A DNA stretch of 64,000 nt. It comes from Armatimonadota bacterium (lineage in GTDB: Bacteria; Armatimonadota; Zipacnadia; UBA1398; JAKPQA01). Positions 1 to 61,144 of the stretch are shown here, one piece after another. Made by a program: the position numbers and the translations under genes. The notes under the pieces were generated by a model. The model saw only the letters and a program-made list of their open reading frames with translations, had not been told where the DNA came from and did not search any database. Position 1 is the first letter of the stretch. Each line of letters begins with the position of its first letter. The stretch covers positions 6,585 to 70,584 of the forward strand of contig JAKPQA010000085.1 of NCBI GenBank assembly GCA_029547025.1, read 5' to 3'.

Positions 1-900
1 CTTCACACCGGGGACATTCGCGCGGTGGACGGTGTCTCGCTGACGGTCCACCGGGGGGAGACCTTGGGCCTGGTCGGCGAGAGCGGATGTGGGAAGTCCA
101 CCCTGGGCCGGGTGGCGGTGAAGCTCATGGAGCCCACGCGCGGGCACGTGCGGTTCGACGGCCAGCCGGTGGACCGGCTGAAGGGCATGGAGCTGATGGC
201 CTTCCGCCGGCGCGCGCAGATCGTGTTCCAGGACCCCTACGGCTCGCTGAACCGCCGCATGACCGCCGGCGCCATCGTGGGCGAGGGACTGCACATCCAC
301 CGGCTGGCCCGACGGAGCCAAGTCCGCGACCGGGCGGCGGAGCTGCTACAGCGGGTCGGTCTGGCCGACACGGACGTGGCCCGCTATCCGCACGAGTTCA
401 GCGGCGGCCAACGCCAGCGGATCGGCATCGCCCGAGCGCTGGCCGTGAGCCCCGAGCTCATCGTGTGCGACGAGCCCGTCAGCGCACTCGACGTGTCCAT
501 CCAGGCTCAAATCATCGAGCTGCTGCGCGACCTGCAGCGCGAGCTGAACCTGTCGTACCTGTTCATCGCGCACGATCTGGCGGTGGTCCGGCACATCAGC
601 CACCGGGTGGCCGTGATGTACCTGGGTCGTCTGTGCGAGGAAGCGCCGCGCGACGTGCTCTACGACGAGCCGCTGCACCCCTACACCCGGGTCCTTCTCG
701 CCGCTGTGCCCGAGCCGGACCCGAAGGTACCCCTGCGGCCGCAGGCCCTCCCCGGCGAGGTCCCCAGTCCGGCCAACCCACCGCCCGGCTGCCGGTTCTC
801 GCCGCGCTGCCCGGTGGCCATCGACGTCTGCCGGCGCGAGCAGCCCCAGTGGCGCGAGCTGGCCCCGGGGCACTTCGTCGCGTGCCACGTGGCGGGGTAG
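1..900 (+). CDS. oligopeptide/dipeptide ABC transporter ATP-binding protein (OppF/DppF-like), 5'-partial at window edge
   Basis: The reading frame is open from nt 1. Walker [13 protein letters not shown] signature LSGGQRQR and Walker B LIVCDEP are present, followed by the C-terminal oligopeptide-ABC extension (CRFSPRCP). Confidence 0.85.
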
Positions 901-917
901 GGGAAGCGCGGCGACCC

Positions 918-976
918 TTGGGCCGGATAGGGTCCCACCGGCCTTCGCCAGGTTCCGGCACACCTCCGAGCAACCG
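918..976 (-). repeat. copy A of a ~58-nt intergenic repeat (TTGGGCCGGATAGRGTCCCACC...GGTTCCGGCA...CCTCCGA...ACCG), 3' of the GH38 gene
   Basis: It aligns to 4172-4229 at about 50 of 59 positions by manual alignment. It lies in the convergent intergenic region between the oppF-like and GH38 genes. A hairpin GGCCGG-loop-CCGGCC is possible. Confidence 0.6.
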
Positions 977-1033
977 AGGAGGGGCCGAATGGAAGGGGCC
1001 CGCGCGGCGGGAAGGGCGCCATCCGGCCCGCCT

Positions 1034-3556
1034 TCACCGCACCACCCGCAGCGTCGCGATCTCAAACGGCCGCAGGTCGAATGTCACCGCGCCGTCGGCC
1101 ACCGGCAGCTCGCCCGTGGCCTCCTCGAGCAGGTTCGCCCGCTCGACGCGAGTGGTCCCCTCGGGCAGCCTGACCCGCACGCCCGGGGTGGCGCGGCCCG
1201 AGGCCTCGTAGAGGCGCAGCACCGCCGCACCGTCGGGCGCGGTCCTGAGAGCTGACACGACCACATGGCGGGGTTCCACCTGGGCCCAGCCCCAACGCGT
1301 CGGCAGCGGGCCCGTGTGAGGGGCGGCGGTCCGAGCAATCAGCGGCTGGTTGAGGGCCTGCCCGTGGTGGAACACGCCGGCCTGGCGCCAGTCGCCCTCG
1401 TGGGGCACGAGCGAGTAGTCGAACGCCAGCCGCTTGCCGCGCTCGAGCCCGGTGGCGCTGGTCATGCCCGGCTCGTAGCCGCCGCCAAAGCCGTAGGCGA
1501 CGATCTGCGTGCTCCGCAGGAGGGACAGGACCAGAGCGCCGTCGATGACTGCATTGCCGGGCAGGCCGCGGTTCAGCAGCGCCAGACCCTTCTCGCCATC
1601 GCTCCAGTCCATCCAGTTCTGGGCGGGGAACTCGATGCCCACGGGCCGCTCGATGGCGCCGAAGGGGATCTCGTGCGTCGCCACACCCTCAGCGATCGAC
1701 GAGGGAAAGACGACGCGGTACCGCACGAACTCGTCGTTGTTGAGGATCTCCGTGTGCACATCGACGCGGGGAACGCCCTGGTAGGTGCGGACGACCGTGC
1801 GGAACTGGCCGCGGTCCCCAAACGCGTGGTCCACCGTGAGCTGGAGCATGACCGGGCCAACCACCAGTTGCGCGCCTTCAGCCCGCTGCTCATCGCTGTA
1901 GACGCCCTTCCCGCGCGGCGCGATGGGGTGGGGGTCCTTCATGGCAATGCGGCTGCCGCCATCGAGCGGCTGATAGGGCTCCCACAGGTCGCCGTGGTCC
2001 TCCTCGCGGACCACGATGTTGCCCGGCGCAGCCAGCGCGTCCCAGCCTGTAGCCTTGAGCACGCAGTGGTCGATGGCGCCGGTGGCCGCATCGATGACCA
2101 GCCGCAACGCGTCGGTCTCGAGCACGACCTCGCCGGACACCTGCTGCTCGCCGGCCGGCGGGGCCGCGTCAAACCGCGGTGCCACGCGGTACAGGCTGTG
2201 GCCCAATGCGGGCACGTCGCGGGCGACGAAGGTGATCTCCGCGGCAACCATGCCACCGTCGGGTAGGCGGTCGGCCCGGAGGATCTGCGCCGGCACCGGC
2301 TTACCATCGGGGCCTACGACTGCCACGCCGGTCACACCAGGCTGCCCGAAGCCCACACGGGCGTGCGCCACGTCCGTCCGCCGGGCCCCAGCGCTGTTGA
2401 ACACCACCAATGGGATGCCCGGGCCTTCGGTGCCGATCCGGGCGCAGTACCGGCCGAGGCGGTCCTCGACTTCGGCCCGCGCCAGCCGGCGCGAGTGATC
2501 GTAGCCGCAGACGCTGTCCTCGTAGACGTGGTCGGTCATCACGCCCGACATGAGATCGTGGGCCTGGTTGAACAGCATGGGCTCCCAGGCACCCCACAAA
2601 TCCCGGTCGGCAACCGGCTCGCCGAGCGAGCCGAGCAGCACGCCGAGCTTCTCCGCCGTGGTGAGGGCCGATTCGAGCTCGCGCGTCCACTGCTTGAGCT
2701 CGATGCGGCTGCTGTAGATGCCCTGGAAGATGGGGTTGAGCTCGCCGGTGACCACCGGGAACGTGTCGTCGATGGGCACGGCCGCCTCGTACTCCTGAGG
2801 CGTGGCGAGCTCCACCGCCACCGCGATGTCCGGCTGGGCGTTGTGCGCCGCGGCCACGGCCGGCAGGTGTCCCTCGGGCTCGCAGACATCCGCGCCGCCT
2901 GGCGCCACCCGGCGGTCGCGCTTCGAGAAGGGGTCCAGCATGTGGTAGCGCTCGTCGACGAACCGGCCGAACTCGGGCACCGTGGCCGGCGAGCCATAGC
3001 TCAGCGCATAGCCATGGGGCAGCCAGTAGGCGGGGACCCTGGTGCCATCGATGCCCTCCCACAGGAACTCAGCCGGCGTCTCCCAGCTCGGGACGCCTCG
3101 GAAGAACCAGAACGACCGGAACCCCGCCTGCGCCAGAAGCTGCGGCATCTGCGCATGGTGCCCGAAGGTGTCGAGCTGCCAGCAGACGGTCACATCGACT
3201 CCGAGCTTCTGGCGGAAGAACCGCTTGCCGTACAGCACCTGGCGGATGAAGGACTCGCCGCCCGGCATGTTGACATCGAGCATGACATCGGTGCCGCCCA
3301 CGATGCCGAGCCGGCCCTCGCGGACGAACTGGCGGAAGCGCGCCGCCTCCTCGGGGAACCTCTCGAGGAACGGCCGCACATAGCAGACCTGGTCGAGGGT
3401 GAAACGGAAGTTCGGATGGGCCTCGAGCAGCGCCAGGGCCCGGAGGATGTTGGGCAAGCCCATGTCGAGGTACTGGTCGCGGGTCTTGAAGACCGCGCCC
3501 TCCCAGTGGGTGTGCGGGATGAAGTAGAGAACCGGTCCGCCGCCAGGGCTGGCCAT
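1034..3556 (-). CDS. glycoside hydrolase family 38-like alpha-mannosidase (840 aa)
   Basis: An N-terminal FIPHTHWEG metal-binding motif resembles the GH38 HxHxD/E motif. The overall length and the order of conserved blocks are typical of bacterial GH38. There is no signal peptide. Confidence 0.6.
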   Translation of the reverse strand: MASPGGGPVLYFIPHTHWEGAVFKTRDQYLDMGLPNILRALALLEAHPNFRFTLDQVCYVRPFLERFPEEAARFRQFVREGRLGIVGGTDVMLDVNMPGGESFIRQVLYGKRFFRQKLGVDVTVCWQLDTFGHHAQMPQLLAQAGFRSFWFFRGVPSWETPAEFLWEGIDGTRVPAYWLPHGYALSYGSPATVPEFGRFVDERYHMLDPFSKRDRRVAPGGADVCEPEGHLPAVAAAHNAQPDIAVAVELATPQEYEAAVPIDDTFPVVTGELNPIFQGIYSSRIELKQWTRELESALTTAEKLGVLLGSLGEPVADRDLWGAWEPMLFNQAHDLMSGVMTDHVYEDSVCGYDHSRRLARAEVEDRLGRYCARIGTEGPGIPLVVFNSAGARRTDVAHARVGFGQPGVTGVAVVGPDGKPVPAQILRADRLPDGGMVAAEITFVARDVPALGHSLYRVAPRFDAAPPAGEQQVSGEVVLETDALRLVIDAATGAIDHCVLKATGWDALAAPGNIVVREEDHGDLWEPYQPLDGGSRIAMKDPHPIAPRGKGVYSDEQRAEGAQLVVGPVMLQLTVDHAFGDRGQFRTVVRTYQGVPRVDVHTEILNNDEFVRYRVVFPSSIAEGVATHEIPFGAIERPVGIEFPAQNWMDWSDGEKGLALLNRGLPGNAVIDGALVLSLLRSTQIVAYGFGGGYEPGMTSATGLERGKRLAFDYSLVPHEGDWRQAGVFHHGQALNQPLIARTAAPHTGPLPTRWGWAQVEPRHVVVSALRTAPDGAAVLRLYEASGRATPGVRVRLPEGTTRVERANLLEEATGELPVADGAVTFDLRPFEIATLRVVR

Positions 3557-3584
3557 GGGGTGAGCACCTTCTGTCGGGGATGAG

Positions 3585-4022
3585 CTAGGAGGTTACCAGC
3601 TGGCCGGGCCAGGCCGCGAGGCCGCCGGCGAGGGCGTAGACCTGGCTGAATCCGCGGGCAACGAGGGCCTCGGCCGCAGTGGCGCTCCGCGCACCGATCT
3701 GGCAGACGACGCAGATCCGCGTGGGCGTGTCGATGCCCGCGGCCCATGTATCCAGGTCGGCCAGTGGCCGATTCACCGAGCCGTGGATATGGCCGGCGGC
3801 GAACTCCGCGGGCGTGCGGACGTCGATGATCTGCAAGGGCAGTCCGTCATCCATCAGGGCCTGGAGCTGGGCGGGCGACACCTCGTGCACGATCGTCCAG
3901 TCGAAGGGTCCGCAGCCCGCGGTGAGGAGCGAAAGCACGGCAAGAACCAGGCAGAGTGTGGGGGCAACACGTCGGCGCACGAGATCCCTTCTTCCGTGAG
4001 AGCATGTGCCGAGCATGGACAT
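3585..4022 (-). CDS. rhodanese-domain lipoprotein (sulfurtransferase-like)
   Basis: The C-terminal rhodanese fold includes the active-site loop CVVCQIGARS. The start was chosen at internal Met80/82 (MSMLGTC...), giving a signal peptide with an LLTAGC lipobox. The longer ORF to 4259 has a non-protein-like N-terminus. Confidence 0.6.
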   Translation of the reverse strand: MSMLGTCSHGRRDLVRRRVAPTLCLVLAVLSLLTAGCGPFDWTIVHEVSPAQLQALMDDGLPLQIIDVRTPAEFAAGHIHGSVNRPLADLDTWAAGIDTPTRICVVCQIGARSATAAEALVARGFSQVYALAGGLAAWPGQLVTS

Positions 4023-4171
4023 CCCATGTGTTCGGCTCCGGGGTCCGGGCATCCTTGGTGGCGGAACCAGGCGCTGTGGAACGCGGGCACAAGAACCCCG
4101 TAATCGGCCGGGGAGAGGGAGAGGTTCTCGACAGCCGGCCCGACGTGGGAGCATGCAGGTTACGGTGAACG

Positions 4172-4229
4172 TTGGGCCGGATAGAGTCCCACCAGCCTGC
4201 GCCGGGTTCCGGCAGGCCTCCGAAGACCG
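4172..4229 (-). repeat. copy B of the ~58-nt intergenic repeat, 3' of the 4260-5192 gene
   Basis: It is about 85% identical to 918-976. The stem arm CCGGCC is changed to CCAGCC, which is a G-U wobble only if the RNA is read from the minus strand. Confidence 0.6.
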
Positions 4230-4259
4230 TCCGCACGCCGCGGCGGCGGGCCCTGCCAC

Positions 4260-5192
4260 CTACGTCGCCACGAGTTCGTAGGCCGTGATCTGCAGCGGCG
4301 CCAGTGGCTGCATCTGGATCGTGCCCGCCGGACCCACGTCGCTCGAATCCAGCTTCTCGCCCGACTGGTCGAAGTGCGACAGGGCGAACGCGTCCACGCC
4401 CGGCACCCATGGGGCCAGGTCATAGCGAAACGTCAGGGGACCTTCAGCGCCCTGGTTGAGCACCAGGGCCAGCACGCGCTCGGGGAGCACGTAGGAGACC
4501 ACCCGCGCGCCGGGCGCCCCTTCGGGGAGCAGGCAGCTCCCAATCAGCACGCCGTCGGTGAAGTAGGGCAAGAAGCGTTGCCGCAGGGCGGCGCACTCCT
4601 TAAGCGTGCGCGACGGCGCCGGCACGTTGTCGATGCGCTCCGAGCCGTTGATCCCGTCGGGCTGGCTGGGCCACACGTTGAGGAACAGGTTGTCCATGAA
4701 TGCGAACTTGGCTTCGGCCTCGGAGCGGTTGATGTTGGCGTTCCGCCGGGGCGCCGGGAATGCGTTGGTGTAGGCCTGGCAGTCGCGGTACCCGCCCCAG
4801 TTCCACGTGTAGTCGAGGTCGTCGCAGTCGACCTCGATGTTCCACAGCTCCTCGCCGCTGAAGCTGGCTTCGGGATCGAGGGTGAGCGCGTACTCGCGGA
4901 CGCGCCGCGTCAGGTCCTGCATGGTCGGGGCGGCCTGGCCGGTCCAGTACTGGTCCCAGCTCACCGAGGCGAAGCCCTTGTCGGCCCACGCGCGCAGCGA
5001 TGCGACGACCTCGTCCTGCCACTGCGGATTCGACGGCCCCACCTGCACGCACGAGTAGCCGGTGGCGTAGGGCGGATTCCAGCGCGGCAGCATCTCGGTG
5101 TGGTAAGTCCACCCGTTGTTGTCGGGCACGGCGAGGTTGTACCGCCCGGCCGTCTTCGGGTTGGCCTGGAGGACGCTGAGGAAGGGGATCAT
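4260..5192 (-). CDS. TIM-barrel glycoside-hydrolase-like protein, probably a 5'-truncated remnant
   Basis: The 310-aa ORF starts at ATG 5190-5192. The same frame stays open and protein-like for 29 more codons upstream (..GTEEEFIEAAARCRELGVR-M) to a stop at 5280 with no alternative start. That stop is only 80 nt from the end of the next gene. Confidence 0.4.
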   Translation of the reverse strand: MIPFLSVLQANPKTAGRYNLAVPDNNGWTYHTEMLPRWNPPYATGYSCVQVGPSNPQWQDEVVASLRAWADKGFASVSWDQYWTGQAAPTMQDLTRRVREYALTLDPEASFSGEELWNIEVDCDDLDYTWNWGGYRDCQAYTNAFPAPRRNANINRSEAEAKFAFMDNLFLNVWPSQPDGINGSERIDNVPAPSRTLKECAALRQRFLPYFTDGVLIGSCLLPEGAPGARVVSYVLPERVLALVLNQGAEGPLTFRYDLAPWVPGVDAFALSHFDQSGEKLDSSDVGPAGTIQMQPLAPLQITAYELVAT

Positions 5193-9174: not shown

Positions 9175-10710
9175 ATGGGCATCGTCGGCGTATGCGCGGC
9201 GGGAGTCGTCTTGCTTTGGCTGGCTCCCGGTGCTCCGGGGCAGACGCCCGGCGAGAGAGAAGGAGACACGACCATGGCGGCGCGGACGACGAACTCGAAC
9301 CCCATCGACATTGGCTCGCGGCTCGAGCTGTTCGTGGACCGCTATCTGATCGACACGATGGACCCAAGGCTGTCGCTGGAACTTCATCCGCCCACGCCGC
9401 GCGAGATCGTGATGGTTCACGATGCGCCCTGGGAAGGCAGCGGCACGGGCTACTTCGACGTGTTCCGGGATGGCGACACCATCCGCATGTACTACATCGG
9501 GTATGGGCTGACGAACGAGGACGGCACCGTCATGTCCACTCGCCCCGTGTGCGCCTGCTACATGGAGAGCACCGACGGCATCCACTGGACGAAGCCCGAT
9601 CTCGGGCTCATCGACTTCGCCGGAACCACCCACAACAATGTGGTGTGGATCCGCGAGAGCGCCGACAACTTCGTTGTCTTCAAGGACACGAACCCCAACT
9701 GCCGGCCCGGCGAGGAGTACAAAGCCACGGCATCGGGCCCCGGCGGCCTGTGGGCCTACAAGTCGTCCGACGGCCTGCGCTGGTCGCCGCTGCAGGATGC
9801 GCCCATCATCACCAAGGGCGCCTTCGATAGCCAGAACCTGGCGTTCTGGGACCCCCTGCGCGGGCACTATTGGTGCTACTTCCGCGACTTCCACGACGGC
9901 CTGCGCGACATTCGGGTGGCCACGTCGGCCGATTTCCTCACGTGGTCCGAGCCCGAGATGCTGGCCTATGAGGACTCGCCCGACGAGCAGCTCTACACCA
10001 ACCAGATCATGCCCTATCCGCGGGCGCCGCACATCTTCGTGGGCTTCCCGACGCGGTATGTGGAGCGCGCGTGGTCGGACTCGTTCCTCCCGTTGCCCGA
10101 CCTGCAGCACCGGCAGAACCGGATGAAGATCGCGCCCCGCTACGGCACCGCCATCACCGATGGGCTGTTCATGTCCAGCCGCGACGGCCGCACCTTCCGC
10201 CGCTGGGGCGAGGCGTTCATCCGGCCGGGGCCCGAACGGAAGGACAACTGGCTCTATGGCGACGGCTACCAGTGCCTGGGGATGATCGAGACTCCGGCCG
10301 AGGACCCCACGGCTCCGCCCGAGCTGTCGGTCTACTGCGGCGAGAACTCGTGGAAGACTCCGGTCCGATTGCGGCGCTACACGCTCCGAGTGGATGGGTT
10401 CGTGTCGGTGAATGCACCGCTCGCGGGCGGCGAGATGGCCACGAAGCCCTTGACCTTCACCGGCAAGGAGCTGGTGCTGAACATGGCCACCTCGGCCGCG
10501 GGGAGCATCCGCGTGGAGGTGCAGGGCGCGGACGGCAAGGCGGTGGAGGGCTTCTCGCTGGCCGACTGCGACGAGGTGTTCGGCGACTCACTGGAACGTG
10601 TCGTCACGTGGAAGGGCCGCTCAGACCTGAGTGCACTGGCCGGACGGCCCATCCGGCTGAGGTTCGCGCTGAGCGATGCGGACCTCTACGCGCTGCGGTT
10701 TCGAGAGTAG
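9175..10710 (+). CDS. secreted BNR/Asp-box beta-propeller glycoside-hydrolase-like protein (sialidase superfamily)
   Basis: A signal-like N-terminus (MGIVGVCAAGVVLLWLAPGAPG) is followed by Asp-box-like repeats STDGIHWT, SSDGLRWS and SRDGRTFRRW. The start is uncertain; alternatives are ATG 9112 or 8887. Confidence 0.5.
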   Translation: MGIVGVCAAGVVLLWLAPGAPGQTPGEREGDTTMAARTTNSNPIDIGSRLELFVDRYLIDTMDPRLSLELHPPTPREIVMVHDAPWEGSGTGYFDVFRDGDTIRMYYIGYGLTNEDGTVMSTRPVCACYMESTDGIHWTKPDLGLIDFAGTTHNNVVWIRESADNFVVFKDTNPNCRPGEEYKATASGPGGLWAYKSSDGLRWSPLQDAPIITKGAFDSQNLAFWDPLRGHYWCYFRDFHDGLRDIRVATSADFLTWSEPEMLAYEDSPDEQLYTNQIMPYPRAPHIFVGFPTRYVERAWSDSFLPLPDLQHRQNRMKIAPRYGTAITDGLFMSSRDGRTFRRWGEAFIRPGPERKDNWLYGDGYQCLGMIETPAEDPTAPPELSVYCGENSWKTPVRLRRYTLRVDGFVSVNAPLAGGEMATKPLTFTGKELVLNMATSAAGSIRVEVQGADGKAVEGFSLADCDEVFGDSLERVVTWKGRSDLSALAGRPIRLRFALSDADLYALRFRE

Positions 10711-28504: not shown

Positions 28505-29635
28505 ATGAGCAGACCCATCGGTATGGGCGTCGTGGGGGCCGGAAGCATCGGGATCCGTGGAGCGCTCCAGCACCTGTGCCTGCCCGACGTTCAGGATCGC
28601 GTGAGACTGGCAGCGGTGTGCGATCCGGTTCCGGGGCGGGCGGCGGCCGCCGCCGCCAAGTATGGAGTGCCACACGCCTACCAGAGCTTCGAGGAGCTGC
28701 TGGCCGACGACTCGGTCGATGCGGTCACACTGGGATCACCCATTGGTCTGCACTATGAACAGGGCTTGGCCGCGGTGCGTGCCGGCAAGCACGTTCACTT
28801 CAACAAGACGATGACGACGACCGCAAGTGAGGCCACGAAGATCATCAACGAAGCCGCGGCCCATCGCGTGAGACTGGTTGCATCGCCTGGGCAGATGCTG
28901 CGGCCCATCAACCAGCGCATCCGCAGGCTCGTGCAGGATGGAGCCCTCGGACGCCTGGCCTGGGCCGCCACGGGAGCGGGCTTTGGAACGTACCATGAGA
29001 ACGAGGGATGCCGCCAGGGCGACGATGTGCTCAGCAACATCAACCCGGCATGGTACTGGCGGAGACCCGGGGGCGGGCCACTCTTTGACATGACCGTGTA
29101 CGGGCTGCACTCGCTTACGGGCGTGCTCGGACCGGCCCAACGCGTGGCGGGCATGTCGGGAGTGGCCGTGCGCGAGCGCGAGTTCCAGGGGACGCGGTAC
29201 GCCTGCGACGCCGACGACAACACACTGCTGTTGCTGGACTTCGGCAATCAGACCTACGCATTCGTCTACGGCGCTCTCTCAGGGATGCTGACGGAGTTCG
29301 GCCTGGCCAGCTACTTCGGTACTCGCGGGCACATCGCGGGCCGCACGATGAACGGAGAGCCAATCGACTATCCGGGCCGGACCGAGGCCGAGGCGGCGGG
29401 CGGCGACAACGTGCTGTTGCCCCATGTGGTGGGCCCCCATCGAGAGCTCGATGAGGCCCACGTCTTCGAGGACATCATGCAGCTCGTGGACTGGGCTCGC
29501 GAGGGGATCCCCTCGCCCGCGACCGCCGAGCATGCGCGCCATGTAATCGAGATCTTCGAGGCCGGGTACCGAGCCGCTGAGACCGGCGAGACTCAGACGC
29601 TGACCACGACCTTCGAGCTGCCAGACCAGGGGTGA
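28505..29635 (+). CDS. Gfo/Idh/MocA family NAD(P)-dependent oxidoreductase
   Basis: N-terminal Rossmann motif GVVGAGSIG and a GKHVHFNK block are present. The C-terminal alpha/beta domain is typical of the family. Confidence 0.8.
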   Translation: MSRPIGMGVVGAGSIGIRGALQHLCLPDVQDRVRLAAVCDPVPGRAAAAAAKYGVPHAYQSFEELLADDSVDAVTLGSPIGLHYEQGLAAVRAGKHVHFNKTMTTTASEATKIINEAAAHRVRLVASPGQMLRPINQRIRRLVQDGALGRLAWAATGAGFGTYHENEGCRQGDDVLSNINPAWYWRRPGGGPLFDMTVYGLHSLTGVLGPAQRVAGMSGVAVREREFQGTRYACDADDNTLLLLDFGNQTYAFVYGALSGMLTEFGLASYFGTRGHIAGRTMNGEPIDYPGRTEAEAAGGDNVLLPHVVGPHRELDEAHVFEDIMQLVDWAREGIPSPATAEHARHVIEIFEAGYRAAETGETQTLTTTFELPDQG

Positions 29636-59746: not shown

Positions 59747-61144
59747 GTGCCGAAACCGAGGATTGCCATCGCCGGCATCGGGCACGAGAGCAACACGTAC
59801 TCGACACGCATGACGGGGCGAGCGGATTTCCGCATCCTGCGCGGGCCGGAGATTGGGGACGACGCGTCACTGCCTGCGGCCGCGGAGGTGGACTGGGCGC
59901 CAGCCCTGGTGGCCTACGCGGCACCGAACGGGATCGTCGCGCGCGATGCCTACGAGGCGCTCAAGGCCGAGCTCCTCGAGCGACTCAGCGCCGCCACGCC
60001 CCTCGATGGCGTCCTGCTGCGCCTGCACGGGGCCATGGAGGTTGAGGGGATCGGTGACGGCGAGACGGACCTCTTGATGGGCGTTCGCGACGCGGTTGGG
60101 CCGGACGCGCTCGTGTCCGGGCGGCTTGACCTGCATGCGAACCTGTCGCCCCTCGCCGCCGCGACCGCCGACGTGCTGACCGCGCACCGCACCGCACCGC
60201 ATGTGGACGCGCGGGAGACGCTGGGCCGGGCGGCTCGCCACCTGATCCGAGCGCTGGCCGACCGGCTGCGCCCACGCAACTGCCTGGTGAAGCTGCCCCT
60301 GCGCCTTCCGGGCGAGTTCGCGGTGACGGATCACGAGCCGGCCCGGTCGCTCTACGCCCGGTTGGTGGAGCTGGAGTGCCACCCGGGCATCCTCGATGCG
60401 TCCCTGGCCATCGGGTGCGCCTGGACCGATTCCGCGCATGCGGGTGTCGGCACGTGGTTGGTGGCGGAGTCGGAACCTCACCAGGCCCGCGCGCTGGCAC
60501 TGGCGCAGGAGTTCGCCGAGACCATCTGGCGCCGGCGCGGGGAGTTCGGGCCCGACGTGCCCACGGGCGAGCTGCCCGTCGTGCTCGAGCGCGCGCTGGC
60601 CAGCGCTCAGCGCCCCGTGGTCATCGCTGACTCCGGCGACAACCCCGGCGCCGGCGGGGCGGGGGACACGACGGTCGTGCTCGAGGCGCTGCTAGCGGCG
60701 GGCGTCACCGGGGCACTGGTGGCAGGCATCGCGGATGCAGAGGCCGTCGGGGCCTGCTGCCGAGCCGGCGAAGGCGAGTCCGCCACACTGGCACTGGGCG
60801 GGAAGCTGGACCGGACCAGCGGCCGGCCACTCGAACTGCGCGTCGAGGTTGAGCGCGTGGTCCCTGGGGTTCTGGCCGTGGTCCGCGCCGAGGGTGTACG
60901 CCTCATCATCACGTCATCGAGGAGCCAGCTCTCGGAGGAGAGCCACTACCTGGAGGCCGGCCTGGATCCCTCGGCCTACCGGATAGTCGTGGTCAAGTGC
61001 GGGTACATGTCCAGCTACCTGAAAGGCATCGCGGGTGAGCGGCTAATGGCGCTAACGCCGGGCTTCACCACACTCCGCCCGGCGTGTGTCGTCGATCGGG
61101 CAACCGGATGGGCCACGCCGGCCCCGGGGGGGTGGGGCGGGTAG
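59747..61144 (+). CDS. M81-family metallopeptidase (MlrC/microcystinase-C-like; DUF1485+DUF1446)
   Basis: The MlrC N-terminus RIAIAGIGHESNTYS is present. A putative GTG start at 59747 has AAGGGG at -9. No in-frame ATG lies outside the upstream gene. Confidence 0.6.
   Translation: MPKPRIAIAGIGHESNTYSTRMTGRADFRILRGPEIGDDASLPAAAEVDWAPALVAYAAPNGIVARDAYEALKAELLERLSAATPLDGVLLRLHGAMEVEGIGDGETDLLMGVRDAVGPDALVSGRLDLHANLSPLAAATADVLTAHRTAPHVDARETLGRAARHLIRALADRLRPRNCLVKLPLRLPGEFAVTDHEPARSLYARLVELECHPGILDASLAIGCAWTDSAHAGVGTWLVAESEPHQARALALAQEFAETIWRRRGEFGPDVPTGELPVVLERALASAQRPVVIADSGDNPGAGGAGDTTVVLEALLAAGVTGALVAGIADAEAVGACCRAGEGESATLALGGKLDRTSGRPLELRVEVERVVPGVLAVVRAEGVRLIITSSRSQLSEESHYLEAGLDPSAYRIVVVKCGYMSSYLKGIAGERLMALTPGFTTLRPACVVDRATGWATPAPGGWGG

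Follow-up and report, generated by a model that had tools for sequence, protein, structure and literature searches.

A GGAG-tagged family of REP/BIME-like palindromes and its probable cognate RAYT transposase in Armatimonadota

The REPs (repetitive extragenic palindromes) that canonically accompany RAYTs (REP-associated tyrosine transposases, of the HUH/Y1 type) are defined by an unpaired GT[AG]G (or CGTC) tetranucleotide (PMC3733652, PMC6006769), and those of E. coli act on mRNA 3′ ends (summarised in PMC3733652, PMC3479197). Subclass 2.7 of the TnpA_REP proteins carries the signature [ND]HVH / WQ / YI[LR][NQ]NP (Quentin et al. 2018, PMC6006769, Table 1), is described with 'long canonical REPs', and ranges over the Cyanobacteria and a few other phyla (PMC6006769). 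A related arrangement is that of the TIRtrons, or TIRYTs, in which a RAYT-like gene lies between long inverted repeats, some of them double palindromes (Di Nocera et al. 2013, PMC3733652); these repeats also form moderately abundant families, in Acidobacteria and Planctomycetes (PMC3733652). The text of neither PMC6006769 nor PMC3733652 mentions the Armatimonadota, and a full-text search of a limited literature set returned no papers combining Armatimonad* with extragenic palindromes.

Two similar non-coding stretches, here called copies A and B, are present 3.2 kb apart in the window (the whole 64-kb stretch of Armatimonadota DNA that was analysed; G+C 67.7%). We propose, with a probability of roughly 85%, that they are decayed members of an Armatimonadota REP family whose cognate enzyme is a RAYT, flanked by units of the family in related genomes. 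REP/BIME-like families with a cognate RAYT are already known; this one is tagged GGAG rather than GTAG, and is apparently not yet described in Armatimonadota. On this proposal, the unexpected conservation of a non-coding sequence is accounted for by its belonging to a REP-RAYT system, and the range of such domesticated or selfish repeats would come to include a phylum that has received little study and is represented mostly by MAGs.

Two degenerate repeats and a third, inverted unit

Comparison of one copy against the window by blastn aligns positions 918–969 with 4172–4223 at 88.5% identity (46/52, ungapped, E ~2e-13), which bears out the earlier note's report of two stretches about 85% identical at 918–976 and 4172–4229. 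The 22-mer TTGGGCCGGATAGRGTCCCACC occurs exactly twice in the window, with no occurrences expected (100 shuffles), and no further direct copy was found in the 64 kb by nhmmer, blastn or an unfiltered covariance-model search. The flanks of the two copies do not align on either side, and the repeat is therefore a bounded unit and not a segmental duplication. On direct reading the substitutions between A and B have no 3-base periodicity, so the copies are taken to be non-coding and the open reading frames that overlap them (596–973 and 3585–4259) to be spurious; within the latter, the rhodanese domain covers only the C-terminal part. The features of this region are as follows.

25–900, plus strand: oligopeptide-type ABC transporter ATPase (Pfam ABC_tran and oligo_HPY)
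920–967, plus strand: core of copy A, degenerate type-1 REP unit (covariance model 16.3 bits, with an 8-nt gap)
968–977, no strand: spacer GAGCAACCGA of the window doublet, corresponding to the GAACACCTC...GA linker of intact doublets
978–1029, minus strand: intact type-2 REP unit, inverted, GGGCCGGATGGCGCCCTTCCCGC-CGC-GCGGGCCCCTTCCATTCGGCCC plus CTCC (GGAG at 978–981 on the plus strand)
1034–3556, minus strand: GH38 alpha-mannosidase (Pfam; 100% identical to the Armatimonadota MAG protein P0066)
3585–3971, minus strand: rhodanese-domain protein of ~129 aa (Pfam Rhodanese; start inferred from an orthologue)
4174–4221, plus strand: core of copy B, degenerate type-1 REP unit, singlet (covariance model 15.1 bits, same gap)
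4260–5192, minus strand: gene of unknown function (from the list of open reading frames; GC3 0.92, coding-like)

The setting of the two copies differs in part from that first described, in which both were placed just 3′ of minus-strand genes. Their non-coding location stands, but copy A starts 19 nt after the stop codon of the plus-strand ABC-ATPase gene (898–900) and is separated from the GH38 stop codon (1034–1036) by the better-preserved inverted unit at 978–1029, missed by the earlier note. The stop codon of the 4260–5192 gene, which has no Pfam match and is 85% identical at the nucleotide level to part of a called gene in the sister-species locus L094 (L numbers designate loci fetched for comparison), lies 38 nt past the end of copy B. 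Copy B is also ~200 nt upstream of the rhodanese gene, whose orthologue in L094 is called at 130 aa, the alignment ending at a common RBS and start. The ~200-nt stretch that separates copy B from the rhodanese start (3972–4171) is by eye visibly less G+C-rich, and is likely to be the promoter or leader of the rhodanese-GH38 pair.

Both copies depart from the family consensus in the same way. Copy A has an intact 5′ foot GGGCCGGATAGGGTCCCACC, a damaged apical hairpin and a CTCC tag at 964–967, and contains an exact 20-mer common to ~90 units elsewhere; the CTCC tag of copy B is at 4218–4221. Alignment to the covariance model reveals that A and B have an 8-nt deletion in common, removing CCCTATKC, the 3′ strand of the second stem (P2), and direct reading shows that both carry the same stem-breaking G-to-C change in the apical stem. 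A and B therefore descend from one already-damaged unit, and neither represents the functional form of the family. Their scores (16.3 and 15.1 bits with model R1) compare with 56–85 bits for 49 canonical units. Folding of each strand, suggested at the outset as a check, gave structures no more stable than shuffled sequence for the window copies, whether folded as RNA or as DNA: the z-scores are −0.47 for the window doublet (916–1033) and +0.29 for copy B, against −5.97 for the intact doublet at L064 1550–1682, which folds at −50 kcal/mol. The hairpin is thus visible only from relatives and not from the single window copies. Two of the six differences between A and B fall at the fourth apical pair position (window 940/950 and 4194/4204), where a purine-purine mismatch is swapped, G/A in copy A and A/G in copy B, an observation that concerns these two sequences only.

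The inverted unit at 978–1029 is the best covariance-model match in the window (33.6 bits, E 3e-5, match 976–1029), ends 4 nt before the GH38 stop codon, and gives the expected hairpin when folded as DNA. Together with copy A it forms a tail-to-tail inverted doublet (920–1029) that fills the space separating the convergent ABC-ATPase and GH38 genes. The spacer of this doublet was compared with those of the doublets in L025, L026, L035, L038, L064 and L083, and many metagenome contigs contain the same combination of type-1 and type-2 units, joined by the linker CCTCCGAACACCTC...GAGGAGG. No inverted partner was found downstream of copy B, and the window as a whole contains three units only; the weak model matches at 10614–10656, 61104–61124, 29338–29459 and others are, on reading, generic GC-rich hairpins inside genes.

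Several other identities were considered for the copies and set aside. TAGGGT/TAGAGT could be taken for a TANNNT −10 box with an upstream G, and no sigma-70-like site was scored; this promoter idea was dropped because ATAGGG is one strand of a conserved stem. An ECF-type GGAAC-N17 promoter on the minus strand is, by reading, not conserved in relatives. The integron attC motif GTTRRRY fits at copy B and in L002, in a flank that is not conserved in other copies, and an HDV-like ribozyme (GGCCGG...GGUCCCA) has a mismatched stem topology.

Spread, anatomy and placement of the family

A scan of one genome per species yields 20-mer matches at 10 loci, eight of them in MAGs of Armatimonadia and Ca. 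Zipacnadia, the other two being unrelated and apparently matching by chance. A metagenome scan adds 76 loci with the 20-mer, including the window's own population (L029 and L072, 99.7–99.9% identity), which is present in the digester samples Ga0116184–Ga0116187, and in the 86 loci fetched there are ~100 units. The 117-kb contig Ga0209613_1000097 has at least 8 units, and one MAG contains 3 exact 20-mer matches. The 20-mer is also present at least 8 times in each of three 41–45 kb contigs classed as viral by IMG/VR (L098–L110; IMGVR_UViG_3300026255_000271, 3300026198_000202 and 3300026311_000743), where the highest density was seen, one exact match per ~5 kb; these contigs represent a prophage region into which REPs have spread, or else host DNA that was wrongly labelled viral.

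The intact unit is an imperfect palindrome of 36–118 nt (median 54) with a constant order of parts: GGGCCGGATAGGGTCCCACC, a variable perfect hairpin, GGTYCCCCCTATKCGGCCC, and an unpaired CTCC tag. There are three stems. The first is the foot, GGGCCG/CGGCCC. The second is ATAGGG/CCCTAT in type-1 units and ATGG/CCAT in type-2 units. The third consists of ACC/GGT and a variable apex; among 49 distinct canonical units there are 40 different self-complementary apical inserts of 1–41 nt, and 42 of the 49 have the unpaired CTCC/GGAG tag. Two features of the immediate flanks may also be recorded, namely that a pyrimidine precedes GGGCCGG in 50 of 51 non-redundant units (C in 36, T in 14), and that the commonest dinucleotide after the CTCC tag is GA (19/49); either is possibly a cleavage or target signal for the RAYT.

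Units also occur as head-to-head pairs and in 132-nt tandem arrays at other loci. Tandem arrays of 3–4 units, with spacings of 246, 132 and 133 nt, are present at L028 5289–5880 and L055 6717–7175, and the same array is found in the IMG/VR loci L102, L108 and L109. The repeated block consists of the unit with 25 conserved nt on its 5′ side (CAGGCGGGCTGAGCGTGAACCTTCG) and, on its 3′ side, a segment that is likewise conserved and ends in GGGAGGGA, a sequence able to pair with the CCCTCC tag. At L063 789–891, inside a long open reading frame according to the crude gene caller described below, a canonical unit sits exactly within another palindrome, GCTTCAGCCCATTG...CAATGGGCTGAAGC, which suggests that this unit was inserted into the loop of a pre-existing hairpin.

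The alignment of 32 sequences shows that the family hairpin is under selection. Pairing is maintained in 97.9% of cells, and four variable apical pairs have two-sided compensatory changes in 31 cells, compared with 9.4 after shuffling of columns (none of 500 shuffles attains 31). When the partner column is slid by 1–3 positions as a register-shift control, pairing collapses to 36–55%. Covariation in the apical helix is almost exclusively Watson-Crick: G-U pairs occupy no cell of the aligned apical pairs and account for 4 of 269 apical pairs in folds. The earlier note had held that a functional element would be refuted if there were only two copies genome-wide and no structural covariation. This is clearly not the case: the genome and metagenome scans returned the 8 MAG and 76 metagenome loci above, with ~100 units, and the covariation stands at 31 versus 9.4 cells.

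Placement was assessed at all loci with a crude GC3-based gene caller. By its calls, 69 of 74 strict non-redundant units (93%) are outside genes, with five scored as intragenic, and of the 42 units adjoining a gene 3′ end, 33 are no more than 100 nt from the stop codon (median distance to the adjacent stop codon, 61 nt). Orientation with respect to the adjacent gene is unbiased, 18 units being on the same strand and 24 on the opposite one (n = 42). There are no target-site duplications in 68 units, with no flanking direct repeats of 4 nt or more, and 3-nt flanking matches are at the level of the shuffle control. A strand-neutral hairpin, a sequence-invariant foot, an unpaired tag and the lack of duplications together constitute the anatomy of a REP, and not that of a structured RNA or a DDE-type MITE.

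The best-surviving alternative, which we nonetheless consider quite improbable, is that the copies are a strand-specific structured RNA (a small RNA, a cis-regulatory 3′-UTR element or a terminator-like stabiliser) to which the RAYT is linked only incidentally. Hairpin covariation is strong, as such an RNA would require, but the near absence of G-U pairs is not in keeping with it, and sequence-invariant stems with a tag fit recognition by a protein better than RNA folding. Most units do lie within 100 nt of a stop codon, yet the 18 to 24 split of orientations is unbiased, and copy B is antisense to the gene before it. The window doublet, for its part, provides each of the two convergent genes with a same-orientation unit right after its stop codon, and the action of E. 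coli REPs on mRNA 3′ ends offers a precedent; against this, there is no U-tract terminator at A or B (the only terminator-like site in 600–4600 is at 4096–4113 on the minus strand), the window copies fold no better than shuffles, and Rfam gives no matches either at gathering scores (window and 8 loci) or at E≤1 (four element-rich loci). Of the possibilities raised by the earlier note, the small RNA, 3′-UTR and terminator options are thus not supported, in view of the balanced orientations, the scarcity of G-U pairs, the lack of Rfam matches at E≤1 and the shuffle-like folds of the window copies. Its REP-like option is the right one, the sequence being part of a multi-copy, extragenic, hairpin-forming family that flanks a RAYT in related genomes.

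The associated RAYT and the sister-species locus

When E. coli RayT is compared with all of the fetched loci by tblastn there is one strong match, at L058 1023–1376 (29% identity, E 8e-15). The corresponding open reading frame scores 95.6 bits with the NCBIfam REP_Tyr_transpos equivalog model (cut-off 80), compared with 25.8 bits with the IS200 model (below its cut-off of 55), and matches Pfam Y1_Tnp. The HUH, WQ and Y..NP motifs are kept in 13 homologues, and the homologues include proteins labelled RayT and Armatimonadota transposases. Contigs were fetched for four of these: L088, L089/90 (GCA_964549395.1), L091/92 and L093 (the Armatimonadetes MAG GCA_013360385.1).

The RAYT gene of L058 lies between a minus-strand unit at 852–918, which contains the exact family 19-mer, and a plus-strand unit at 1412–1466, with the GGAG/CTCC tags outermost. 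The same arrangement, a minus-strand unit upstream, a plus-strand unit downstream and the tags outermost, is found in L089/90, L091/92 and L093, where GGAGGGGCCG.ATGG...CCATCCGGCCC is upstream of the RAYT and GGGCCGGAT...AT.CGGCCCCTCC downstream. In L088 the downstream unit is clear and the upstream one is weakly detected, as the foot-plus-tag remnant TTCGGCCCCTCC (13.9 bits). Inverted units are accordingly present on each side of the RAYT at five independent loci, the upstream one in L088 being weak. L093 also has very short units of 38–39 nt around its RAYT (GGGCCGGATGGGGCCCC..GGGGCCCCATTCGGCCCCTCC; 1373–1500 and 2071–2394), two upstream and three downstream, the downstream ones within a ~164-nt tandem repeat. 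The 64-kb window itself contains no RAYT gene detectable by tblastn, and none appears among the 25 most frequent of the 57 Pfam families reported for 32 window open reading frames.

The nature of this protein bears on a second alternative, which we regard as very improbable: that the copies are MITEs, terminal repeats from an insertion sequence of the conventional DDE type, or the two ends, left and right, of an IS200/IS605 element (PATE). The doublet has inverted termini (GGGCCGGAT...ATCCGGCCC), but its single units are themselves palindromes, found alone, in both pair orientations and in arrays, and no target-site duplications accompany the 68 units. The associated protein belongs to the Y1/IS200 superfamily, but it is identified by the RAYT equivalog score and not by the sub-threshold IS200 score; the units that flank it are inverted, whereas IS200/IS605 ends are distinct LE and RE structures; and no TnpB or DDE gene was called beside the RAYT in the six RAYT loci with gene calls (L088–L093). 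A mere local duplication or chance similarity without any family, to which the two direct copies in the 64-kb window and their private derived features might point, can be dismissed, since the copies match at E ~2e-13 within the window between unrelated flanks and ~100 related units in other genomes and metagenomes refute it.

For the preferred reading, that of decayed units of a REP family with a cognate RAYT, a mechanism can be outlined from the established behaviour of E. coli RayT (PMC3479197; summarised in PMC3733652). By analogy, the RAYT would recognise the folded foot and tag on single-stranded DNA, and would cut and rejoin unit DNA at this position; in this way single units, inverted doublets and arrays could be seeded wherever insertion is tolerated, for the most part shortly downstream of genes. 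Hints on mobilisation by the RAYT are indirect, and consist of the absence of target-site duplications in 68 units and the turnover of families at orthologous sites described below. The RAYT would fail to recognise the deleted form of A and B, which are most likely immobile relics of one damaged unit. Those units at gene ends that are transcribed may act as 3′ hairpins, as E. coli REPs do.

A look-up of the exact window GH38 protein gave no contig; orthologous loci were reached through homologues of the GH38 protein, and include a syntenic locus of a sister species (L094–L096) in which GH38 is 85% identical at the amino acid level and the flanking genes are 83–87% identical at the nucleotide level. 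The sites of A and B are occupied there by two sister copies of a different long-hairpin repeat of ~125 nt, in the same orientation, at the following positions.

L094 8552–8675 (also L095, L096): long-hairpin repeat, corresponding to window 918–1031
L094 3916–4039 (also L095, L096): long-hairpin repeat, corresponding to window ~4172–4229

This repeat has an outer stem GGGGTCTGGAGC/GCTCCAGACCCC and an inner stem GGCTCCTGACCCC/GGGGTCAGGAGCC, followed by CCCTCC and GCTGAACACC; the CCCTCC tag and the GAACACC linker are all that it has in common with the window family. On the ABC-ATPase side of the copy-A site, its left junction is no more than ~4 nt from that of the window. At the copy-B site, the position of the junction is blurred by an extra gene and an N gap in L094. 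Across window 3972–4171, homology stops right after the common RBS and start of the rhodanese gene, CACGAGATCCCTTC[T/C]TCCGT, and it is in this stretch that the sister species carries an extra gene, of 468 aa. No GGGCCGGAT-type unit was found in 14.5 kb of the sister-species loci, and no empty site was found in the sister species, the orthologous sites holding another palindromic repeat, so that no clean insertion polymorphism was obtained. These sequences show that repeat families turn over at fixed sites, which suggests either site preference or in-situ replacement, and is no clean empty-site proof of mobility.

A more specific idea, which we offer tentatively and consider rather unlikely, is that REP families replace one another in situ, with RAYT-driven insertion directed at pre-existing REP or terminator hairpins. 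If so, the family currently active in a lineage would overwrite older units site by site, and the resemblance of A and B would be a product of targeted replacement and not of random insertion. The window family would also be the first GGAG-tagged REP-RAYT system to be described in Armatimonadota, and one that is conserved between lineages at the class level; paired-site turnover between sister species, if general, would provide a handle on the renewal of REP populations. There are also practical uses. The covariance model and consensus can be used to mask or annotate these repeats in MAGs, where they break assemblies and can pass for ncRNAs, and the GGAG tag, together with the hypervariable apical hairpin, lends itself to testing which features a RAYT reads, expected to be the foot and tag rather than the apex.

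Comparison with known systems

The E. coli REP/BIME system with RayT (TnpA_REP; Quentin subclass 2.2, Bertels group 2) resembles the Armatimonadota family in several respects. First, both have extragenic imperfect palindromes with an unpaired 4-nt tag at one end. Second, two unit types alternate in orientation and are joined by characteristic linkers, as the Y and Z units are in BIMEs. Third, the RAYT gene is bracketed by units. Finally, the L058 protein is 29% identical to RayT and has the same HUH, WQ and Y motifs. The E. coli foot GTAG-GCCGGATAAGG also looks like the Armatimonadota GGAG-GGGCCGAATAGGG, but the best match of E. coli REPs to model R1 is not significant (15.5 bits, E 0.06), so this resemblance is a lead only, and the idea that they are one sequence family was set aside on the same score. 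The systems further differ in their tags, GTAG in E. coli and GGAG in this different phylum, and in the length of the unit, which is greater in Armatimonadota (median 54 nt, maximum 118) and goes with a hypervariable apical hairpin. The GT[AG]G/CGTC tetranucleotide by which canonical RAYT-associated REPs are defined is replaced by CTCC/GGAG, within the same anatomy.

The REPIN-RAYT system of Pseudomonas (Bertels and Rainey 2011, PMC3116915; group 3 RAYTs, PMC5581495) likewise has inverted doublets with short spacers, which fold as one structure in the way that the intact L064 doublet does (the window doublet, at z = −0.47, does not), singlets that are read as decayed remnants, and a RAYT with flanking repeats. 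In contrast to REPINs, the Armatimonadota doublet joins a type-1 unit to a type-2 unit; complementarity between its halves is thereby confined to the feet and tags, and the structure formed is a branched fold in place of a single long hairpin. The occurrence of head-to-head pairs and of tandem arrays of 132 nt is a further difference. With TnpA_REP subclass 2.7 the comparison is of motifs alone: those of the L058 protein (DHVH, WQ and YILNNP) match the subclass signature, whereas the REPs of that subclass are reported with a 5′ GT[AG]G and the Armatimonadota units have GGAG. Lastly, the TIRtrons and TIRYTs are similar in that a tyrosine transposase gene lies between long inverted palindromic repeats, and differ in their GGGGWSAS motif, which is not evident by reading in the Armatimonadota units. 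Unlike TIRtron repeats, those units keep the REP anatomy of foot and unpaired tag and occur as singlets, and the Armatimonadota protein passes the RAYT equivalog model.
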